Source: a bacterium (GTDB taxonomy: Bacteria; UBA8248). Taken from it: DNA of 64,000 nucleotides. The notes beneath the pieces are model-generated. The model was not told the DNA's origin and made no database searches. It was given only the letters and a program-made list of their open reading frames with translations. Position numbers and translations under genes: made by a program. The DNA lies in NCBI GenBank assembly GCA_965261085.1, contig OZ253442.1:3616001-3680000 (forward strand), given 5' to 3'. Below, piece by piece: positions 6,078 to 54,460 of the stretch (positions are counted from its first letter, which is position 1; each line of letters starts with the position of its first letter).

Positions 6078-7091
6078 TCAGATTTTCCTGAGCTCCGGGA
6101 TGAGTTCGTCCGAGATCATCCGCATGCTGTGAAGCGCCGTGGAAAGCGGCATCCCCGCCCAGTGGGTACGGATGATGAGGTGGCTCATCCCCACTTCCTC
6201 CCAGTAGGGGCGAAGCTGCTCGTAGCACTCCTCGGGCGATCCGAGGATGAAGCGATCCTTTAAGAGATCGTCGAATTCCTGGTCGAAGCTCTCATCCTCG
6301 GGCATGGCGTCGTCCTGGCCCCACTTGGCGTAATCCTTGTACTTGCCGAACAGATAAGGCCCCGCCATCTCGAGGGCGGTCTTTCTGTCGCGGCTGCAGA
6401 AGACCTCCTTCATACAAGGGAAATCCGCCGGAAACGGCTTGCCGCACCGTTCCAGCTCCGCGCGGTAGAGCGCCATCTGGCGCTTGATGGTCGCCGTGGT
6501 CGAATGGGGGTTGATGAACCAGTTATCGCCGATGCGCGCGGCGCGCTCTATTGCCTTGTCGTTGTTCGCCGCCACCCAAATCGGCGGATAGGGCTTCTGC
6601 ACCGGGCGGATGTTCATGCGCACGCCGTCGAGCTTGCACACGTCGTCCTCCCAGGTGACTTCCTCTTCCGTCCAGAGGCGCTTCACGAGTTCGAGACACT
6701 CCTCGAACCTGCGCACGCGGTGGCCCTTCGGCACGCGGAAGGCGTCGAACTCCGTCTCGCGGTAGCCCAGGCCGATGCCGAACACGAAGTTCCCCCGGCA
6801 GATGACGTCCATCGTGGCCACCGTCTCGGCGACGTAGACCGGGTTGTGGAGGTTGATGAGCAGGATGCCGAGCCCCAGCGTCATCTCGCCCGCCTCGGCC
6901 TGAAGGCGCGCCAGGAAGGGCACGATCTGGAGCTGTTGGTTGTCGCCCTCGTTCAGGTAGTGCTGCCCGGTGAAGAGCGAATCCCAGCCCTTGTCCCGCG
7001 CCAGGCGCACCATGGCGTACTGATCGTCCAGGGCGCTGACCATGTCGGTTTCGAGACGCTGCTGGTTGGTGATGAAGAGGCCTACTTTCAT
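6078..7091 (-). CDS. LLM-class flavin/F420-dependent oxidoreductase
   Basis: HNPVYVAETVATMD, GIGLGYR, PPIWVA and GSPEEC motifs. Confidence 0.92.
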   Translation of the reverse strand: MKVGLFITNQQRLETDMVSALDDQYAMVRLARDKGWDSLFTGQHYLNEGDNQQLQIVPFLARLQAEAGEMTLGLGILLINLHNPVYVAETVATMDVICRGNFVFGIGLGYRETEFDAFRVPKGHRVRRFEECLELVKRLWTEEEVTWEDDVCKLDGVRMNIRPVQKPYPPIWVAANNDKAIERAARIGDNWFINPHSTTATIKRQMALYRAELERCGKPFPADFPCMKEVFCSRDRKTALEMAGPYLFGKYKDYAKWGQDDAMPEDESFDQEFDDLLKDRFILGSPEECYEQLRPYWEEVGMSHLIIRTHWAGMPLSTALHSMRMISDELIPELRKI

Positions 7092-35895: not shown

Positions 35896-36549
35896 TTAGT
35901 CGTCCTCGTAAACCCCGCCGTCGCTGCTCTCCGGAAAAACTTCACGGTAAATATCCGAGAGATTTCTGCCTTCGAAAGTCCAGCGCCCACACGGATTAGC
36001 CGAGTAATTCAGGTCCAGGGCCATGTTTGTTGCAGCCGTCAAAGACATTTCCTCGCCACGAAACGACACCTTTTTCTCTCCAATCACGATCGCTTTCTCG
36101 TGTGCGCCATTCGTGGACACCAGTTCCGAACCATCTGGAATTCCCATGACCCTAAAATTCAAATTCGGTCTGTGATTGCGTCTTTTGAATTTCCTCGCAT
36201 CCTCTTTTTCTTCGGAAGACAAATCTTTATCCAAGTCACGCTCAATCTCCGGGGTTACGTCTCGGGCGTCCGGCCAGATTTTGAGAAGAGCCTCTACTTG
36301 GGAACTCCCTACTTCAAAGAACTCTCGGGAACGACTCAGTCTGTGCGGCTCGAATGCGACATGAAGGGCTTTCTCGAGTTCATCCCCCTTTTCTTCAACC
36401 TCGACCGCGATGGTGCAATCGAACGGAAGGGGAACGCCTGTCGTATACAATTCTTTCATTCTCGCCTGGAGGTCATCCCGCGTCGTCTTGCCGATCTTGA
36501 TGAGGTCGGGCATAGCCGGGTTAGTCAGAACATAAACAATGACGGACAC
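35896..36549 (-). CDS. GIY-YIG nuclease (T5orf172-like)
   Basis: VYVLTNPAMPDLIKIGKT, TGVPLPF and REFF motifs; lower GC. Confidence 0.85.
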   Translation of the reverse strand: MSVIVYVLTNPAMPDLIKIGKTTRDDLQARMKELYTTGVPLPFDCTIAVEVEEKGDELEKALHVAFEPHRLSRSREFFEVGSSQVEALLKIWPDARDVTPEIERDLDKDLSSEEKEDARKFKRRNHRPNLNFRVMGIPDGSELVSTNGAHEKAIVIGEKKVSFRGEEMSLTAATNMALDLNYSANPCGRWTFEGRNLSDIYREVFPESSDGGVYEDD

Positions 36550-36806: not shown

Positions 36807-37229
36807 ATGAATTATTGGGCATACGTTCATCCGGCTTTTCAGATTGCCACGCTTTCGCTGGGCCTGATCACTCTGGCCAACGGCTTGCGCGTGAGGCGTT
36901 CCCGAAGGGGAGGAGCCGGACCCGAGACGGCGCGCATCGCCCGCCTTCACATGCGGCTCGGGCGATGGTTCATCGCTTTTTTCTCGGCGGGCTACGCTTT
37001 GGGGCTGGGCGGGATGCGCTTCGCCCTGGAAGGGCCCCTCTACGAGACGGCGCACAGCTATTTCGCCACCCTGGCCCTGGGCTTGTTCTGGACGACGGCC
37101 TATCTGGGACGAAGACTGAGAAAAAATCTCAAAAACGACGATTTGCGGCAGATTCACTCCTATTGCGGGTTTCTGGCCGTTTTTCTCGCCCTGTTCGTCG
37201 CTTTTTTGGGGATGCGCCTACTCCCCTAG
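36807..37229 (+). CDS. Four-TM membrane protein with four His (DUF4079/cytochrome b561-like)
   Basis: HP, LH, AH and IH at or in four hydrophobic helices. Confidence 0.7.
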   Translation: MNYWAYVHPAFQIATLSLGLITLANGLRVRRSRRGGAGPETARIARLHMRLGRWFIAFFSAGYALGLGGMRFALEGPLYETAHSYFATLALGLFWTTAYLGRRLRKNLKNDDLRQIHSYCGFLAVFLALFVAFLGMRLLP

Positions 37230-37472
37230 CGTCCTCGATTCTGATAGAATTAGGAGGGAGCCGCCGCTTCAAGAAGCAGGAAAATTCTCCATGTCCTTAT
37301 TCTCGCTCTCGTCTTCATGCCCCATGATTATCATGGCCGGCAATCAGACATTTTGCCCGGCGCAAACCTTTCGTGTATCCTGCAATCCATTGGCTCGACC
37401 AACACCCAAAATTCAAGAAATAGCGGACGACGAAAATTCGTATCGCAATTATCCCTCCATGGAGGAAGAATT

Positions 37473-38426
37473 ATGCTGAGAAAATCGTGGTTCATCCTGT
37501 TCGCCGCGCTCCTCATCGCCTCGCTTTGGGCCGCCCTTCCGGCCCAGGCGGCGAACCCATGCGCCAAGAACCCGTGCGCGGCGAAAAATCCGTGCGCGTC
37601 AAATCCTTGTGCGAAAAACCCCTGCGCTAAAAATCCTTGCGCAAAAAATCCCTGTGCAAAGAACCCATGCGCCAAGAACCCCTGCGCAGGAAATCCGTGT
37701 GCTGCCAAGAACCCTTGTGCTAAAAACCCCTGTGGCGCGAACCCGTGCGCGAAGGCGGCGAAGAACCCCTGTGGCGCGAACCCATGCGCCAAGGCGGCGA
37801 AAAACCCTTGTGGCGGGAATCCGTGCAACCCTTGTGCGGGCGGCGCGGCCCGGGCGAGGAGCGAGGCCGTCATGCTCGTCGGCCAGGTCACCGGCTACAG
37901 CAAGGGCTATCTGGGCGTGCGCACCTCCGCCGGCAAGAACGTGAGCGTCCACGTGGTGAAAACCACGCTGGCGCACAGGGGGCCGAAACCGATCAGCGCA
38001 GCCTCCATCAAGGCCGGAACCCGGGTGAACATCTCCACCCAGGCCAGGGGCGGCTACTACAAGGCGAACTTCATCTACGCCCTCGTAAGCGGCGGAGGTA
38101 ATCCCTGCGGCGCCAACCCCTGTGGCGGTAACCCCTGCGCCAAAAATCCCTGCGCCGGCAACCCTTGCGCGAAGACCGCCAAGAACCCTTGCGGGGGAAA
38201 CCCCTGCGCAGCGAAAAATCCTTGCGGGGCCAATCCATGCGCCAAGAAAAACCCGTGCGGCGCAAACCCCTGCGCAGCCAAGAACCCTTGCGCCAGTAAC
38301 CCGTGCGCGAAAAAAAATCCGTGTGGTGGGAACCCTTGCGCGAAAAACCCGTGCGCCGCCAAGAATCCTTGTGCGGCGAAGAATCCGTGCGCCAAGAATC
38401 CTTGCGCTCCGGGAGGGAAAAAATAG
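37473..38426 (+). CDS. Exported Cys-rich protein: about 18 + about 19 NPC repeats flanking a small beta-rich domain
   Basis: GGAGG RBS; signal peptide ending AQA; synonymous codon variation between repeats. Confidence 0.85.
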   Translation: MLRKSWFILFAALLIASLWAALPAQAANPCAKNPCAAKNPCASNPCAKNPCAKNPCAKNPCAKNPCAKNPCAGNPCAAKNPCAKNPCGANPCAKAAKNPCGANPCAKAAKNPCGGNPCNPCAGGAARARSEAVMLVGQVTGYSKGYLGVRTSAGKNVSVHVVKTTLAHRGPKPISAASIKAGTRVNISTQARGGYYKANFIYALVSGGGNPCGANPCGGNPCAKNPCAGNPCAKTAKNPCGGNPCAAKNPCGANPCAKKNPCGANPCAAKNPCASNPCAKKNPCGGNPCAKNPCAAKNPCAAKNPCAKNPCAPGGKK

Positions 38427-38500
38427 AAATGCCTCCACGCGCGGTGCGTGGAGTTTGACTTTTCTTGAAGTCGGATTTTTCCATATCCTGCAAGGAGAAA

Positions 38501-39358
38501 ATGATGAAGACAGCAAAGTGGGGCATCATTCTCGCCGTGGCCTTAGGCCTGATGATTCCATCGGCCGCCCAGGCGGCGGAAAAGAAGGCGACTATCACGC
38601 CGCCGCCCTTTTTCTTCACCCAGCAACGCGACGCCAGCGTGAAGGACTCCGTCACCCGGGGCAAGAAAATCTTCAGAGACATAGGCTGCGTGGGCTGCCA
38701 CCCCCGGGGCCGCACCGTCGGCGGCACCGCCGTGGACATCATGGGCTTCAGGAACCCGGTGCCCATTCCCACCCTCATGGGAGCGGCGGATCACTTCCCG
38801 CGCCTGAGTCCGGCAAGCCAGGTGGTGAACGTCGGGCAGTTCAACGACCTTTGCTCCACGACGTTCATCGGCAATCCGCCCATGGACCCCTATTCCCAGA
38901 GATACAAGGACCTCGAATCCTACGTGGTTTCGCTCTCCCGCGCGCGATACAAGCGGATGCTCGACTGGGAGGCGAAGCGCAAGGCGTTCATGAAGACGGT
39001 GCAGCCCGCGGCCGGTGGGGGGAACCCCTGCGGAGCCAACCCCTGCGCAGCCAAGAACCCTTGCGGGGGTAATCCTTGCGCCAAGAATCCATGCGCGGCG
39101 AAGAATCCCTGCGCCGCCAAGAACCCGTGCGCGTCAAAAAACCCCTGCGCGGGGATAAATCCTTGCGCCAAAAATCCGTGCGCGGCTAAGAATCCCTGTG
39201 CGGCCAAAAATCCTTGTGCGGCGAAGAACCCCTGCGCTGCCAAAAATCCTTGTGCGAAGAACCCTTGCGCTGCGAAAAACCCCTGCGCTAAGAATCCTTG
39301 CGCGAAAAACCCGTGCGCGGCAAAGAATCCGTGCGCAAAGAATCCATGCAAGAAATAA
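38501..39358 (+). CDS. Exported monohaem cytochrome c (SoxA/TsdA-like pattern) with about 20 C-terminal NPC repeats
   Basis: Signal peptide; CVGCH; HFPRL...FNDLC...S..YKDLESYV. Confidence 0.85.
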   Translation: MMKTAKWGIILAVALGLMIPSAAQAAEKKATITPPPFFFTQQRDASVKDSVTRGKKIFRDIGCVGCHPRGRTVGGTAVDIMGFRNPVPIPTLMGAADHFPRLSPASQVVNVGQFNDLCSTTFIGNPPMDPYSQRYKDLESYVVSLSRARYKRMLDWEAKRKAFMKTVQPAAGGGNPCGANPCAAKNPCGGNPCAKNPCAAKNPCAAKNPCASKNPCAGINPCAKNPCAAKNPCAAKNPCAAKNPCAAKNPCAKNPCAAKNPCAKNPCAKNPCAAKNPCAKNPCKK

Positions 39359-39496
39359 TGGAGGCTTAGCCGACATATTCGGATGAGCATCCGGCGCGCG
39401 CGCGTTTGAGACACCGCCTCCCCGCATCGATCGGGGATGGCGGAGTCTCCGCGCCTGCGTCCCATATCGACGAGACCGATGAAAGAGGACGGGAGA

Positions 39497-40297
39497 ATGA
39501 AGTTTCTGAAGAAAAGGGGGTTGTGGATCGTCGTGGCTCTCGCGTGGAGCCTCATCGCGCCCGCCGGTTCTCTTGCCGCCAAGAGAATACCTCCCAAGAC
39601 CGAGACGGCGAAGCAAAACGGCGCGGACTACTGGCTGGGCAAGGAAATCTATGAGGAAATCTGTTTTTCCTGCCACGGCAGCAAGGGTGACGGGAAGGGC
39701 CCTAGCTGGCGGAGTTCGAGGCCGAGACCGCAGGTGTTCATCAGCCCCTACATGAGGCGCATGACGGATGACTACATCTTCTCCATCGTGAAGTTCGGCA
39801 AGATGAATGTCTTGAAAAACCAGACGAAGGGCCACAAGATAAAAAACGGCGTCCCCACCGCCATGCCCTCGTTCGGCGAAGTGCTCGAAGACGACCAGAT
39901 AAGAAAGCTCATCAAATGGGAGCGCGGCTTCACGAGCGGCAAACAGCCCAAGGATGAGGAGTCGAAAGGGATCTTCATCGACGCCTGCTCCCAGTGCCAC
40001 GGCAAACAGGGCTTCGGCAACGGAATCCGTCCCGTGGAGGATCAGGACCCCGAAAAACCGTTCATCAGCCACATTCAGCCGCCGCCGATGAACTATCACC
40101 TAAAAGAGCAGATGGCGCGCTTTGACGACGAATTCCTCTTCTGGCTCATCAAGTTCGGCCGCATCGACGTCACCGAGATGAAGAAGTTCGACTTCATGAA
40201 GGCCTACGGCCACGTGCTGAGCGATGAGGAGATATGGTCGGTCGTCCAGTATGTCCGCGAAACGTTCATCGACGGCAAGCCGAGAAAGAAGAAATAG
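39497..40297 (+). CDS. Exported dihaem cytochrome c
   Basis: Signal peptide; CFSCHG..G.G.G and CSQCHG; AMPSF and FMKAY distal-Met segments. Confidence 0.9.
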   Translation: MKFLKKRGLWIVVALAWSLIAPAGSLAAKRIPPKTETAKQNGADYWLGKEIYEEICFSCHGSKGDGKGPSWRSSRPRPQVFISPYMRRMTDDYIFSIVKFGKMNVLKNQTKGHKIKNGVPTAMPSFGEVLEDDQIRKLIKWERGFTSGKQPKDEESKGIFIDACSQCHGKQGFGNGIRPVEDQDPEKPFISHIQPPPMNYHLKEQMARFDDEFLFWLIKFGRIDVTEMKKFDFMKAYGHVLSDEEIWSVVQYVRETFIDGKPRKKK

Positions 40298-40346: not shown

Positions 40347-40773
40347 ATGCGCTTGTGGAGTCTTCACCCGAAATATATCGACGCCAGGGGCCTCGTCGCC
40401 CTGTGGAGAGAAGGCCTCCTCGCCCAGGCGGTTCTCACGGCCAAGACGCGCGGCTACCGCCGCCATCCCCAATTGCTTCGCTTTCACTCAGGCGGCAGAC
40501 CCGCCGCCTTCATCGCCGAATACTTAAGGGCCGTACACGCGGAATCACTCGCACGGGGCTACCGCTTCGACGTAAACAAGACAGGTTGCAGCCGCACTTC
40601 CTCAAAGCTGGAAGTAACAAGCGGCCAGCTCGATTTCGAATGGGCTCATCTCATGAAAAAGCTGGAAACCCGTGCGCCGGAACTACATGAGAGATTGATG
40701 GCGACGGCCTCCCCCCAATCTCATCCCCTGTTCCGCAACGCCCGGCGGGGTTGCGGACTGGGAGCGGCCGTAA
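40347..40773 (+). CDS. Pyrimidine-dimer DNA glycosylase/endonuclease V-like protein with an apparent C-terminal frameshift
   Basis: MRLWSLHPKY..GLVALWRE, HPQL.RF; the typical end PGGVADWERP* lies in another frame. Confidence 0.8.
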
Positions 40774-40860
40774 GTCTCTATTTCAGGACAAGACGAGGCG
40801 CTCGCTTTATGAGAAAATACGCGCGTTGCCCGAAACGTAAGTTCCCTGAGGAGTTTCATC

Positions 40861-41172
40861 ATGAGTCTGAACGTCGAAGCATCGCGAGAGGAGGTCGCCG
40901 CCTTTTGTGAGCGCTGGCAGGTTACACAACTCGCCATTTTCGGCTCGGCGCTGCGGGAAGATTTCGGGCCCGATAGCGACGTAGACCTTCTCGTGAGCTT
41001 CGAAGACGGCGCGCGCCATACGCTCTTTGACATGCACTACATGGAGGAGGAGCTTAAAACGATATTCGGGCGTGAGGTCGATCTCATTGAGCGCGTAGGG
41101 GTCGAACGAAGCCGAAACCACATCCGCCGCGAAGCCATCCTCCAATCCGCCGAGACGATTTATGCGGCGTGA
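40861..41172 (+). CDS. Minimal nucleotidyltransferase (MntA-like antitoxin)
   Basis: FGSALREDFGPDSDVDLL and GREVDL motifs. Confidence 0.9.
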   Translation: MSLNVEASREEVAAFCERWQVTQLAIFGSALREDFGPDSDVDLLVSFEDGARHTLFDMHYMEEELKTIFGREVDLIERVGVERSRNHIRREAILQSAETIYAA

Positions 41173-41500
41173 CGACGCCTGGCTGGTCGACATGTTACAG
41201 GCCGCGAGAGAGGCGGTGGAGTTCGCGAACGGACTGAGCTTCGCGGAATTCGAACAAAACCGCATGGTGCAACTCGCGATCCTGAAAGCTATGGAAATCG
41301 TAGGAGAAGCCGCCTCCCACGTCGGTGCCGACGCACGAGAAGCCTATTCCGAAATTCCCTGGCCTGAAATCGTCGGTATGCGCAATCGTCTCGTGCATGG
41401 ATATTTCAACGTCAATCTGAAGCGTGTGTGGGAAACCGTCCAACAGGACATCCCCCGGCTTATTTCACAACTCGAACGGCTCGCACCGCCGGAGTCTTAG
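41162..41500 (+). CDS. HepT/DUF86 HEPN ribonuclease toxin
   Basis: IVGEAA, IPW and MRNRLVHGY (RX4H) motifs. Confidence 0.9.
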   Translation: MRRDDAWLVDMLQAAREAVEFANGLSFAEFEQNRMVQLAILKAMEIVGEAASHVGADAREAYSEIPWPEIVGMRNRLVHGYFNVNLKRVWETVQQDIPRLISQLERLAPPES

Positions 41501-42673: not shown

Positions 42674-42874
42674 GGACCCGCCTCCACATCTGATGAAGTT
42701 CGACCGCACGAACCTTAGCATATATCAACATGAACATGCGGCGCAGGCGCGATACGCTTTCAGGCGTGAGGGCACGCCGTGTGCGAGCGATTTGACGCCT
42801 TTGCTCCGCTTGGGCATATATTCATGGCGTTCCCAGCGGGAAACCTCACAGCGAAACCACAGGGCGCATGCGAA

Positions 42875-43702
42875 ATGAGAGCAATAGAGAAAACCGGCGC
42901 ACATCATGTCGCGGCGCGCTTTATTTTCCCCCTCCTCATCCTTCTGATCTTTACGGCTCCGGCGGCGGGAGAGCGACAGGGCAAACGCGATGAGACCGTT
43001 CCCTCCCCTCCCATCATCAAAGTGCTTCCCGATACGAAAGACGGCCGGGCGATGGTGTTCGTGCCGGGGGGCCGCTTCACGCAAGGCTCATACGACGGCA
43101 ACCCTCAGGAGCTTCCCGTGCGAAAGGTCTTCATCTCCCCGTTCTGGATGGATCGCGATGAGGTGTCCGTCGCCGGTTGGGAGAGGTTCCGAGAGACCAC
43201 GGGCCACCGGGCGTCTAAGTATTCTCGGGACAAAACGCTCCACCGGCCTCATCTGCCGGTCGTGGGCGTCTCCTGGTTCGACGCCGGGGCGTATTGCGCC
43301 TGGGCCGGCAAGCGCCTGCCCACCGAAGCCGAGTGGGAAAAGACGGCGCGCGGCGCGGACGCGAGGCGCTACCCGTGGGGCGATTTTTTCGATCGCGCCC
43401 GCGTGGGCGGTGGCGGCCCCCAGCCCGTGGTCGGCAATCCGGGCGGCGAATCGCCCTATGGCGCGCGTTCGATGGCGGGCGGCGTCTGGGAGTGGACGCA
43501 TGATTTCTGGGGCGAGTTCTATTACCGCGAAGCGCCGCTCAAAGACCCGCAGGGGCCGCCTTCCGGGTTTTTGCACACCATTCGGGGCGGTTCGTGGCGC
43601 GAAGGCCCCGAATACTTGAGGAGTGCGGAGCGTTTTCGCCTCGACGGCATCATCCGCTGGAAAATTCTGGGCTTTCGCTGCGCGAAGAGCGGGGGGAGGT
43701 AG
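42875..43702 (+). CDS. FGE-sulfatase (SUMF1/EgtB/PvdO) fold protein
   Basis: KRLPTEAEWEK, YPWG, MAGGVWEW, RGGSW and GFRC motifs; start uncertain. Confidence 0.9.
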   Translation: MRAIEKTGAHHVAARFIFPLLILLIFTAPAAGERQGKRDETVPSPPIIKVLPDTKDGRAMVFVPGGRFTQGSYDGNPQELPVRKVFISPFWMDRDEVSVAGWERFRETTGHRASKYSRDKTLHRPHLPVVGVSWFDAGAYCAWAGKRLPTEAEWEKTARGADARRYPWGDFFDRARVGGGGPQPVVGNPGGESPYGARSMAGGVWEWTHDFWGEFYYREAPLKDPQGPPSGFLHTIRGGSWREGPEYLRSAERFRLDGIIRWKILGFRCAKSGGR

Positions 43703-53611: not shown

Positions 53612-54460
53612 CTACTTTTCTATCGGAAAACCGACGACGCTGCCCCACTCCGTCCATGAGCCGTCATATATTTTCACGTTTTCATAGCCCAGCAGATACC
53701 GCATGGCGAACCAGACCAGACTGGCCCGGTGGCTCAGCCGTCAGTAGAGGACGAGTTCGATCTCATCATCGGGCGCAGCGCCTGCGCCGCTGAGAATTTT
53801 CCCGAGTTCCTCCGTACTCTTGTAGGTGTCGTCCGCATTCAGCAGTTCGCGGAAAAACAGGTGCACCGAACCCGGTATGCGCCCGGCGCGCTCGGCCCCG
53901 TGGTCGAGACCCGGCGGGGGCATCACCCGCTCGCCCCTGTATTCCTCGGGCGAGCGCACGTCGAGCAACACCCTGCCCGGCTCGCCGAGCCTGTCGCGGA
54001 TATCGTCCCTGCCCACGCTCAAGACTTCCGCTTCATCCGGCGCGGGGTGGGCGACGGCCACAGCACCCGGCGCCTCGCTCGAGACGGGCATCCCGTCGGC
54101 AATCCATTTTTTCTTCGCGCCATCGAGGAGCTTCAGATTCGTGAAGCCCGCCATCTTCAGGACCCAATACGCATAGGTTCCGAACTGCACCGGCTCACCA
54201 TAGAGAACAATGGTCGCATCCGGCCCAACCCCCATGCGGCCCAACTGCTCCGCCAACGCCCCGGGCGCGGCGAACGCGCGGTCCGTCTCGTGCCAAAGGG
54301 CCCCTTTCCAGAACCACCAGTGCGCCCCTGGCACATGGGCTTCACGGTAGGAGGCGTCGTCATTGGCTGATGAAACCTCGATGACGTGTACATTCGGACT
54401 CCCTAGGTGTTCTGAGAGCCACGCGGTAGAAACGAGCGCGGAATTATCGGTTTGCGTCAT
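53612..54460 (-). CDS. Two-domain sulfurtransferase (rhodanese) with in-frame UGA at the catalytic Cys; probable selenoprotein
   Basis: [18 protein letters not shown], then LY-UGA-RLSHRAS...YDGSWTEWG...IEK-TAG in one frame. Confidence 0.85.
53710..53730 (-). promoter_or_regulatory. Candidate bacterial SECIS element
   Basis: ACCGGGCCA-GUC-UGGUCUGGU hairpin; loop G-U begins 19 nt after the UGA at 53741-53743. Confidence 0.6.

Follow-up and report, generated by a model that had tools for sequence, protein, structure and literature searches.

A SoxA/TsdA-like cytochrome c with Asn-Pro-Cys repeat arms, linked to a dihaem cytochrome c: a possible periplasmic carrier module for sulfur or selenium

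The SoxAX cytochrome couples thiosulfate to a cysteine of the flexible carrier arm of SoxY and, to our knowledge, the family of cysteine-ligated cytochromes has no characterised members besides SoxAX and TsdA, both of which act on thiosulfate. TsdA joins two thiosulfates via a Cys-S-thiosulfonate formed on Cys96, the distal ligand of its haem 1, and needs this residue for activity in both directions (PMC6879331). Another haem c enzyme acting on sulfur, the pentahaem MccSep of Geobacter sulfurreducens, is a multihaem selenoprotein polysulfide reductase that is reported to have a Cys-ligated haem and a catalytic selenocysteine (Sec) (PMC13510729). Here, a cluster of four genes (g1 to g4) is described in a 64,000-nt window (contig OZ253442.1 of assembly GCA_965261085.1, positions 3,616,001 to 3,680,000) from a Nitrospinota-type bacterium of the GTDB lineage UBA8248; all coordinates refer to this window unless another locus is named. 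The cluster encodes a membrane protein with four His (g1), an exported protein with Asn-Pro-Cys (NPC) repeats on both sides of a small beta-barrel (g2), an exported monohaem cytochrome c with an NPC tail (g3) and an exported dihaem cytochrome c (g4). The preliminary description, made from the letters of the window, had recognised no characterised pathway with this layout; no published description of a module with NPC arms was found in the literature, but the layout does parallel that of SoxAX/SoxYZ and TsdA/TsdB.

With its haem domain, g3 is a distant relative within the SoxA/TsdA family of cysteine-ligated cytochromes. No Pfam match was obtained for g3 itself at E≤0.01. A homologue, L029 (35–38% identical), passes the profile of the SoxA/TsdA cytochrome c domain, PF21342, with 34.9 bits against a cut-off of 27, and 16 of 27 members of the g3 family match this profile at a permissive E≤5. 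When the AlphaFold model of the mature g3 haem domain (predicted local distance difference test, pLDDT, 85.7) was used in a Foldseek search, the top seven rows were all TsdA, with weak E values of about 5e-3. In a re-alignment of the model by VIA-align, SoxA (1h31_A) gave a Z of 10.4 with a root mean square deviation of 1.7 over 86 residues, and TsdA gave a Z of 9.4–9.7, the superposition falling on its haem domain 1 (residues 18–127 of the model on 17–128 of the chain, Z 9.7); di-haem peroxidases ranked next, with a Z of 7–9. The modelled haem domain of g3 thus has the fold of the SoxA/TsdA family.

The same relationship was seen at the sequence level. A broad profile, in which the g3-type sequences were joined with NPC cytochromes of Gammaproteobacteria, reached SoxA among the PDB sequences with E=1.5e-12 (1h31_A) and 3e-11 (2c1d), and TsdA with 6.5e-6. 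In these profile-PDB alignments, the invariant Cys of the family (C93 of mature g3) falls on Cys96 of TsdA and on the Cys of both SoxA domains, where it matches the haem-ligating Cys of SoxA. The residues C38, C41, H42 and C93 are conserved in 27/27 and 21/21 g3 relatives as well as in 33/33 NPC cytochromes from other phyla. For H73 and M103, invariance is limited to the Nitrospinota-type subfamily (2/33 elsewhere), and so these two are not general ligand candidates. In our reading, the haem iron of g3 would be ligated by His and a cysteine thiolate. In the protein atlas, g3 adjoins the clusters of PF21342 and PF03150.

Compared with SoxAX/SoxYZ (1h31, 2c1d), the module would in concept likewise combine a Cys-ligated haem with a c-type electron acceptor and a flexible carrier arm that bears Cys, but g3 has a single haem domain and no SoxX, its partner is a dihaem cytochrome, and the carrier consists of arrays of 20 and 37 Cys, one of which is fused to the enzyme. 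In TsdA (TsdA/TsdB; 4wq7, 5lo9) there are two haem domains per chain and no Cys arms, whereas g3 contains one CxxCH and one domain of about 150 amino acid residues. The dihaem cytochrome g4 presumably resembles TsdB, the dihaem acceptor of TsdA, although no sequence match to TsdB was found among its PDB hits. In MccSep, the Sec is reported to lie beside the Cys-ligated haem (PMC13510729), whereas in relatives of g3 a Sec codon occurs at the ligand position itself. The only paper found to name PF21342 describes EeuP, a four-haem protein without NPC arms, which was uninformative as a comparison for g3 (PMC12503164).

In four loci (L025, L026, L037 and L077), the codon of the distal Cys of the g3 relative is an in-frame TGA, after which the frame stays open and conserved (MNDL-TGA-NTIFLGREPMDP). 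L025 and L026 come from a different family of the same class, and L037 comes from a metagenome-assembled genome labelled Deltaproteobacteria. In all four of these loci, a hairpin starts 8 nt past the TGA codon; it has a CGUGA loop and shows one compensatory pair. SelA, SelB and tRNA-Sec scored over their cut-offs in both genomes examined (G029 and G030). Given that a weaker hairpin also folds in the Cys-type sequence of the window (single-sequence fold), the hairpin alone is modest evidence, and the argument for a Sec insertion element rests mainly on the loop sequence, the four independent TGA codons and the Sec machinery. The features by which bacterial selenoproteins are judged, namely an in-frame TGA at a Cys position, a hairpin and the Sec machinery, were thus found together for relatives of g3, and Sec is likely to occupy the distal haem position in the four TGA loci. 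The codon in the window is TGC, and g3 is therefore not a selenoprotein here. The exchange between Cys and Sec in the C93 column argues that the residue at this position is chemically active. A catalytic-type haem on the NPC-tailed cytochrome, as proposed in the preliminary description, is supported by the SoxA/TsdA-like sequence and model, by the conserved distal Cys and by the probable Sec of the relatives.

Two side observations concern the Sec-type loci. In L026, a second in-frame TGA occurs at position 6448, just before a short NPC tail, and the frame stays open while the NPC units continue; this codon may encode a further Sec, or it may stem from a recent nonsense mutation or from an error. 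In L037, a cupredoxin/plastocyanin-like gene (1830–2213 of that locus) follows g4.

The arms of g2 and g3 together contain 57 regularly spaced Cys (37 + 20 NPC units). In g2, the NPC units are spaced by 5–6 residues, with few gaps of 3 or 8. Besides A, N, P, C, K and G, the pure tracts include one or two S/T/I but no acidic or aromatic residue, and with 14–18 Lys per tract the arms are strongly cationic. This composition count agrees with the Lys-rich, acid-free and aromatic-free tracts of the preliminary description, and its polythiol arms common to two proteins, its four co-oriented open reading frames, the numbers of NPC units and the haem motifs were all confirmed at their coordinates. A six-frame translation of the 4.27 Mb genome yielded 583 NPC tripeptides, of which three or more occurred together only in g2 and g3; this confinement to two reading frames indicates that the arrays did not arise by chance. 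At the DNA level, the repeats match only by 65–94%, mostly 70–80%, and the NPC units are encoded by 13 distinct 9-mers among 37 units in g2 and by 9 among 20 in g3. Both the divergence of the DNA and the diversity of the 9-mers argue that the peptide motif has been kept by selection and is not the product of recent slippage alone. The copy number ranges from 3 to 31 NPC among species of one genus.

In some near-identical copies of g3 in public protein collections (P0001, P0034 and P0037), the C-terminal part lies in another frame (…RKPLRSQPLRSQ…), which looks like the result of frameshifts or of mis-assembly among the repeats. Repeat-length variants and joints were also present in contigs assembled from RNA libraries.

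Between its two NPC tracts, g2 contains a core that was modelled as a six-stranded barrel of the oligonucleotide/oligosaccharide-binding (OB) type (pLDDT 85.4). In fold, the model is similar to the barrels of cold-shock proteins, Ten1/RMI2 and CusF, with every E above 1e-3, and for CusF the target-normalised template modelling (TM) score was 0.70–0.73 with E values of 6e-3 to 1e-2. The Met/His/Trp metal site of CusF is absent from the conserved residues of the g2 barrel: Ser and Ala are invariant, Gly and Tyr are nearly so, and no Met, His, Cys or Trp is conserved, which makes the barrel unlike a metal site. The barrel profile retrieved 1147 representatives at E≤1e-3, many of which are secreted proteins with 3–11 copies that carry the Pfam domain DUF5666. 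No Pfam match of g2 to DUF5666 was obtained at E≤0.01 and, in contrast to the multi-copy DUF5666 proteins, g2 has a single barrel flanked by Cys arms. The NPC-barrel-NPC plan also occurs in records labelled NC10, Methylomirabilales and Deltaproteobacteria, and the g2 of one related genome (G010) is degenerate.

The g3 domain was present in 25 of 41 related genomes, including 18 of 22 within the same genus. Among 17 fetched loci, 12 hold g1, g3 and g4 in this order and two hold g1 and g3 only. A separate g2 was found in five of those 12 same-genus loci and in two loci of a more distant family; elsewhere, the signal peptide and first tract of g2 are fused to g3. The two loci of the more distant family contain g2, a Sec-type g3 and g4, without g1. 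The flanking cyclase and glycosylase genes are syntenic within the genus as well; linkage can therefore be judged from the distant loci only. In this respect, g4 adjoins g3 in family f1, in G025, in family f4 (G029 and G030), in L037 and in L077. No g4 orthologue was found in G001 and G007, and G020 has g1 alone. A search for fused g3-g4 or longer g3 forms found none, which is weak evidence. Of the four-gene set put forward in the preliminary description, the firm conserved unit is therefore the g3 + g4 pair, kept across families; g2 adds a separate copy of the arms in some loci only, and g1 is a neighbour specific to this lineage.

The g4 protein contains two Cytochrome_CBB3 domains (E=4.2e-22), and its best PDB sequence matches were 6h5l_B, CcoP and QcrC. 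Judged by gene linkage, g4 is the likely redox partner of g3. The membrane protein g1 scored 50.9 bits on PF13301 (DUF4079; cut-off 31.4) and weakly, with 25.8 bits, on PF03188 (cytochrome b561); no match to g1 was found among the PDB sequences. Each of its His residues (8, 48, 83 and 117) opens a hydrophobic stretch, and the four are invariant in 15 and in 10 relatives, all of them close kin with 66–94% identity. According to these features, g1 is a putative di-haem b transmembrane electron carrier.

The arms are not restricted to this lineage. A search with g2 retrieved 822 proteins at E≤1e-3, and among the 120 matches listed at least 30 carry PF21342, six cytochrome P460, six YHS and two DM13; for one of the NPC-armed YHS proteins, the NCBI name is YHS (seleno)protein. 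A degenerate DNA pattern for NPCAAKNPCA, which is biased to that exact peptide, identified at least 124 stretches, and 80 loci were fetched. Their labels include Alpha-, Beta- and Gammaproteobacteria, Rokubacteria/Methylomirabilia, Tectomicrobia, Myxococcota, Thermoanaerobaculia and Nitrospinota, and Marinobacter, Thalassospira, Vreelandella and Aromatoleum are among them as cultivable and genetically tractable carriers of the broader family. The preliminary description had suggested a search for the co-occurrence of NPC arrays with the cytochromes and the membrane protein: a SoxA-like NPC cytochrome was present in 42/80 loci, a g4-like gene in only 6/80, a g2-type barrel in 4/80 and g1 in 3/80, where many of the contigs are short and absences mean little.

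Neighbouring genes were counted in the 77 non-duplicate NPC loci. DUF6969 was the commonest (43/77, mostly on the same strand, with a median gap of 32 nt), followed by three unnamed protein families (38/77, 23/77 and 18/77), DUF302 (18/77), a multihaem cytochrome (17/77), Sulf_transp (YeeE/YedE; 17/77), an extracytoplasmic function (ECF) sigma factor (16/77), DUF3179 (14/77), a pyridine nucleotide-disulfide oxidoreductase (12/77), a domain of the formylglycine-generating enzyme (FGE)-sulfatase type (11/77), a radical S-adenosylmethionine protein with DUF3641 (9/77) and thioredoxin (8/77). DUF6969 was not found in five Nitrospinota-type genomes, a result that is uninformative because the control genomes were equally negative.

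The carrier-arm chemistry of SoxAX and the Cys-thiosulfonate of TsdA lead us to read g3, tentatively, as an enzyme whose haem catalyses two-electron S-S or Se-S chemistry on thiol arms in a SoxAX/SoxYZ-like manner, the electrons leaving via g4. In this scheme, g3 would act with its own flexible, Lys-rich tail of 20 Cys, beside the secreted arm-only g2, in which 37 Cys flank the OB barrel. The haem-bound Cys would form a covalent adduct with a small anionic chalcogen, which may be thiosulfate, polysulfide, sulfide or a selenium species, or alternatively it would form the adduct directly with an arm thiolate. In two-electron steps, g3 would then make or break S-S (or Se-S) bonds, both in its own tail and in the arms of g2. 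The electrons would be passed on to g4 and, in this lineage, might proceed to the four-His protein g1 or come from it, and the arms would serve as covalent carriers or as a store of oxidised sulfur or selenium. With a class-I cytochrome c as acceptor, redox potentials make oxidation the downhill direction. What we infer in this proposal is how the haem is ligated, which substrate or cargo (sulfane sulfur, a metal or something else) is handled, in which direction the electrons flow and what g1 does; the anatomy of the genes, the family of the haem domain, its Cys/Sec position, the linkage of g3 with g4 and the broad distribution of the arms are shown by the data.

Several lines of evidence point to such sulfur or selenium chemistry: the SoxA/TsdA fold and profile, the conserved distal Cys, the probable Sec in relatives and the adjacency of g4 across families, and in addition the recurrence of Sulf_transp, pyridine nucleotide-disulfide oxidoreductase and thioredoxin genes near NPC loci. 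Moreover, RNA-library contigs from four libraries of two studies, 90–99% identical, cover parts of all four genes; as assembled contigs, they carry no strand, level or co-transcription information.

The module appears to add a third branch to the family of cysteine-ligated cytochromes, spread over many phyla and permanently wired to dozens of thiols. A wider claim, which we regard as doubtful, is that the NPC arms are a new covalent carrier or store of chalcogen that does not depend on SoxYZ and on which a SoxA-type haem enzyme with one haem domain acts, with Sec as the axial ligand in some lineages, and that the module represents a widespread, unrecognised periplasmic branch of sulfur or selenium metabolism. 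The Sec axial ligand, if true, would be a natural selenolate-ligated c-type cytochrome. The identity of the substrate could reveal a new extracytoplasmic route for sulfur, selenium or thiol-reactive compounds, and such a route would include abundant marine and groundwater bacteria.

A number of results weigh against the proposed chalcogen chemistry on the arms. With regard to the haem domain, g3 itself scored only 15.7 bits on PF21342 (E=0.016), below the cut-off of 27 bits, and the profile of the g3 subfamily reached only peroxidase-type haem sites among the PDB sequences, not SoxA/TsdA. SoxY (PF13501) and SoxB (TIGR04486) were not found in G000, G002, G009, G029 and G030, nor was a second PF21342 protein found in G000, G025, G029 and G030, which leaves bound sulfur without a known downstream route. 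The surrounding 64 kb show no signs of sulfur energy metabolism except for one rhodanese gene. With regard to the arms, the Sec-type homologue in L077 has no NPC tail, 25–40% of the units are NPG, NPP or NPR in several species, and the occurrence of NPC arms on P460, YHS and DM13 domains suggests that their purpose may be more general than the carriage of sulfur. Finally, g1 and g4 are direct neighbours without g3 in G015 (L155) and G016 (L156), so these two genes may form a unit of their own.

Among the alternatives, the arms could be a periplasmic thiol buffer against oxidants or electrophiles (H2O2, HOCl, NO-derived or other reactive species), in which the arms offer sacrificial or recyclable thiols and the Cys-ligated haem and the cytochromes reset or sense the redox state; we consider this unlikely, although it survives best. 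It would fit the ECF sigma factor and thioredoxin genes that recur near NPC genes, and in both f4 loci an AhpC/TSA-Redoxin gene lies upstream of the cluster at a distance of a few genes, but the cluster in the window lacks thioredoxin, CcdA/DsbD and a sigma factor. Class-I c-type cytochromes such as g4 have a potential far too positive to reduce disulfides, and so the cluster would have no reductant line. Besides, the swap of Cys to Sec at the haem indicates catalysis rather than sensing.

A role of the Cys arrays in handling a soft metal or metalloid (Cu(I), Hg, Cd, As or Ag), be it as a binder, buffer or chaperone, with the cytochromes changing the redox state of the metal, appears improbable. 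Such a role could be read from the 57 closely spaced thiols, from the fusion of the same arms to YHS domains (in six of the 120 matches listed), from the cupredoxin gene after g4 in L037 and from the CusF-like fold of the g2 barrel; yet this barrel lacks the conserved residues of a metal site, as described above, and no CopA, Cus, Mer or Ars-type genes were found in the 48 open reading frames scanned in the window. The strongly cationic, acid-free arms would disfavour the capture of cations, and the haem domain comes from a family of sulfur enzymes.

A mainly structural role of the NPC tracts, as an extended or disulfide-laddered stalk, tether or cross-linker that positions periplasmic redox domains and whose Cys carry no cargo, is more improbable still: the low complexity of the tracts, their variable copy number within one genus, the replacement of Cys by Gly, Pro or Arg in some units, the degenerate g2 of G010, the presence of arms on four unrelated domain types and the repeat-length variants in RNA-library contigs would agree with it, but the NPC peptide stays invariant over diverse synonymous codons, which speaks for selection of the motif; in addition, only this locus of the genome has such arrays, the same motif recurs across phyla and always on redox or metal-type domains, and a dedicated arm-only protein is conserved across phyla.

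The features of the cluster and of its surroundings are listed in Table 1. The true start of g2 lies at the signal peptide MLRKSW..., and its homologues likewise begin with a signal peptide. The intergenic gaps g1-g2, g2-g3 and g3-g4 are 243, 74 and 138 nt, respectively.

Table 1. Coordinates of the four-gene cluster, its parts and other features of the window.
Feature	Position	Strand	Remarks
g1	36807-37229	+	Membrane protein of 140 aa, DUF4079 family, four His
g2	37473-38426	+	Exported arm protein of 317 aa, 37 NPC units
g2 NPC tract 1	37554-37835	+	18 units
g2 OB-type beta-barrel	~37836-38099	+	About 90 residues, between both tracts
g2 NPC tract 2	38100-38423	+	19 units
Terminator-like hairpin, then TTTGACTTTT	38433-38453	+	From pattern scan; right behind the g2 stop codon
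g3	38501-39358	+	Exported monohaem cytochrome c, 20-unit NPC tail
g3 haem domain, SoxA/TsdA-like	38576-39022	+	After the signal peptide
g3 haem motif CVGCH	38687-38701	+	Sole CxxCH of g3
g3 distal Cys codon TGC	38852-38854	+	C93 of the mature protein
g3 NPC tail	39023-39355	+	20 units, C-terminal
g4	39497-40297	+	Exported dihaem class-I cytochrome c
g4 haem motif CFSCH	39662-39676	+	Signal peptide in front
g4 haem motif CSQCH	39986-40000	+	
FGE-sulfatase-domain gene	42779-43702	+	PF03781, E=2e-48; 2.5 kb downstream of g4
T5orf172/MUG113-domain gene	35896-36549	-	Just upstream of g1
Pyrimidine-dimer glycosylase (PF03013) and MNT/HepT pair	40347-41500		Between g4 and the FGE-like gene
Rhodanese-domain gene	53744-54460	-	13 kb downstream
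Transposase, 480 aa	7709-9148	+	DUF772 + DDE_Tnp_1
Transposase, 480 aa	20890-22329	-	DUF772 + DDE_Tnp_1

The FGE-sulfatase-domain protein is a possible fifth gene associated with the cluster. In the window, a glycosylase gene, an MNT/HepT pair and a binding-protein gene separate it from g4. In G009, the FGE-like gene directly follows g4, and it lies beside the cluster in four further related loci. By locus, orthologues were found beside the cluster in L013, L014 and L016, where the gene comes directly after g4, and genes 45–57% identical to it in L025 and L026. The FGE-sulfatase domain also recurs in L077, besides the NPC loci from other phyla counted above.

The hairpin behind g2 is a possible attenuator between g2 and g3. 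In the promoter and terminator scan, the counts did not exceed those of shuffles, with 7 terminator-like sites in the region as compared with 7.7; as there is no excess of such sites, the hairpin is suggestive by its position only.

The rhodanese-domain gene was the only other gene of a sulfur-transfer type noticed in the window. The T5orf172/MUG113-domain gene upstream of g1 is intact in L019 and L020 and fragmentary in L016 and L017. The MNT/HepT pair downstream of g4 is a toxin-antitoxin system of the nucleotidyltransferase-ribonuclease type. The two transposase genes have identical Pfam scores and are inverted with respect to each other, and they bracket about 11.7 kb that includes DUF4062, a gene with a metallo-beta-lactamase fold and subunits of an Mrp-type antiporter; the pair and the DNA between them could be a composite element.

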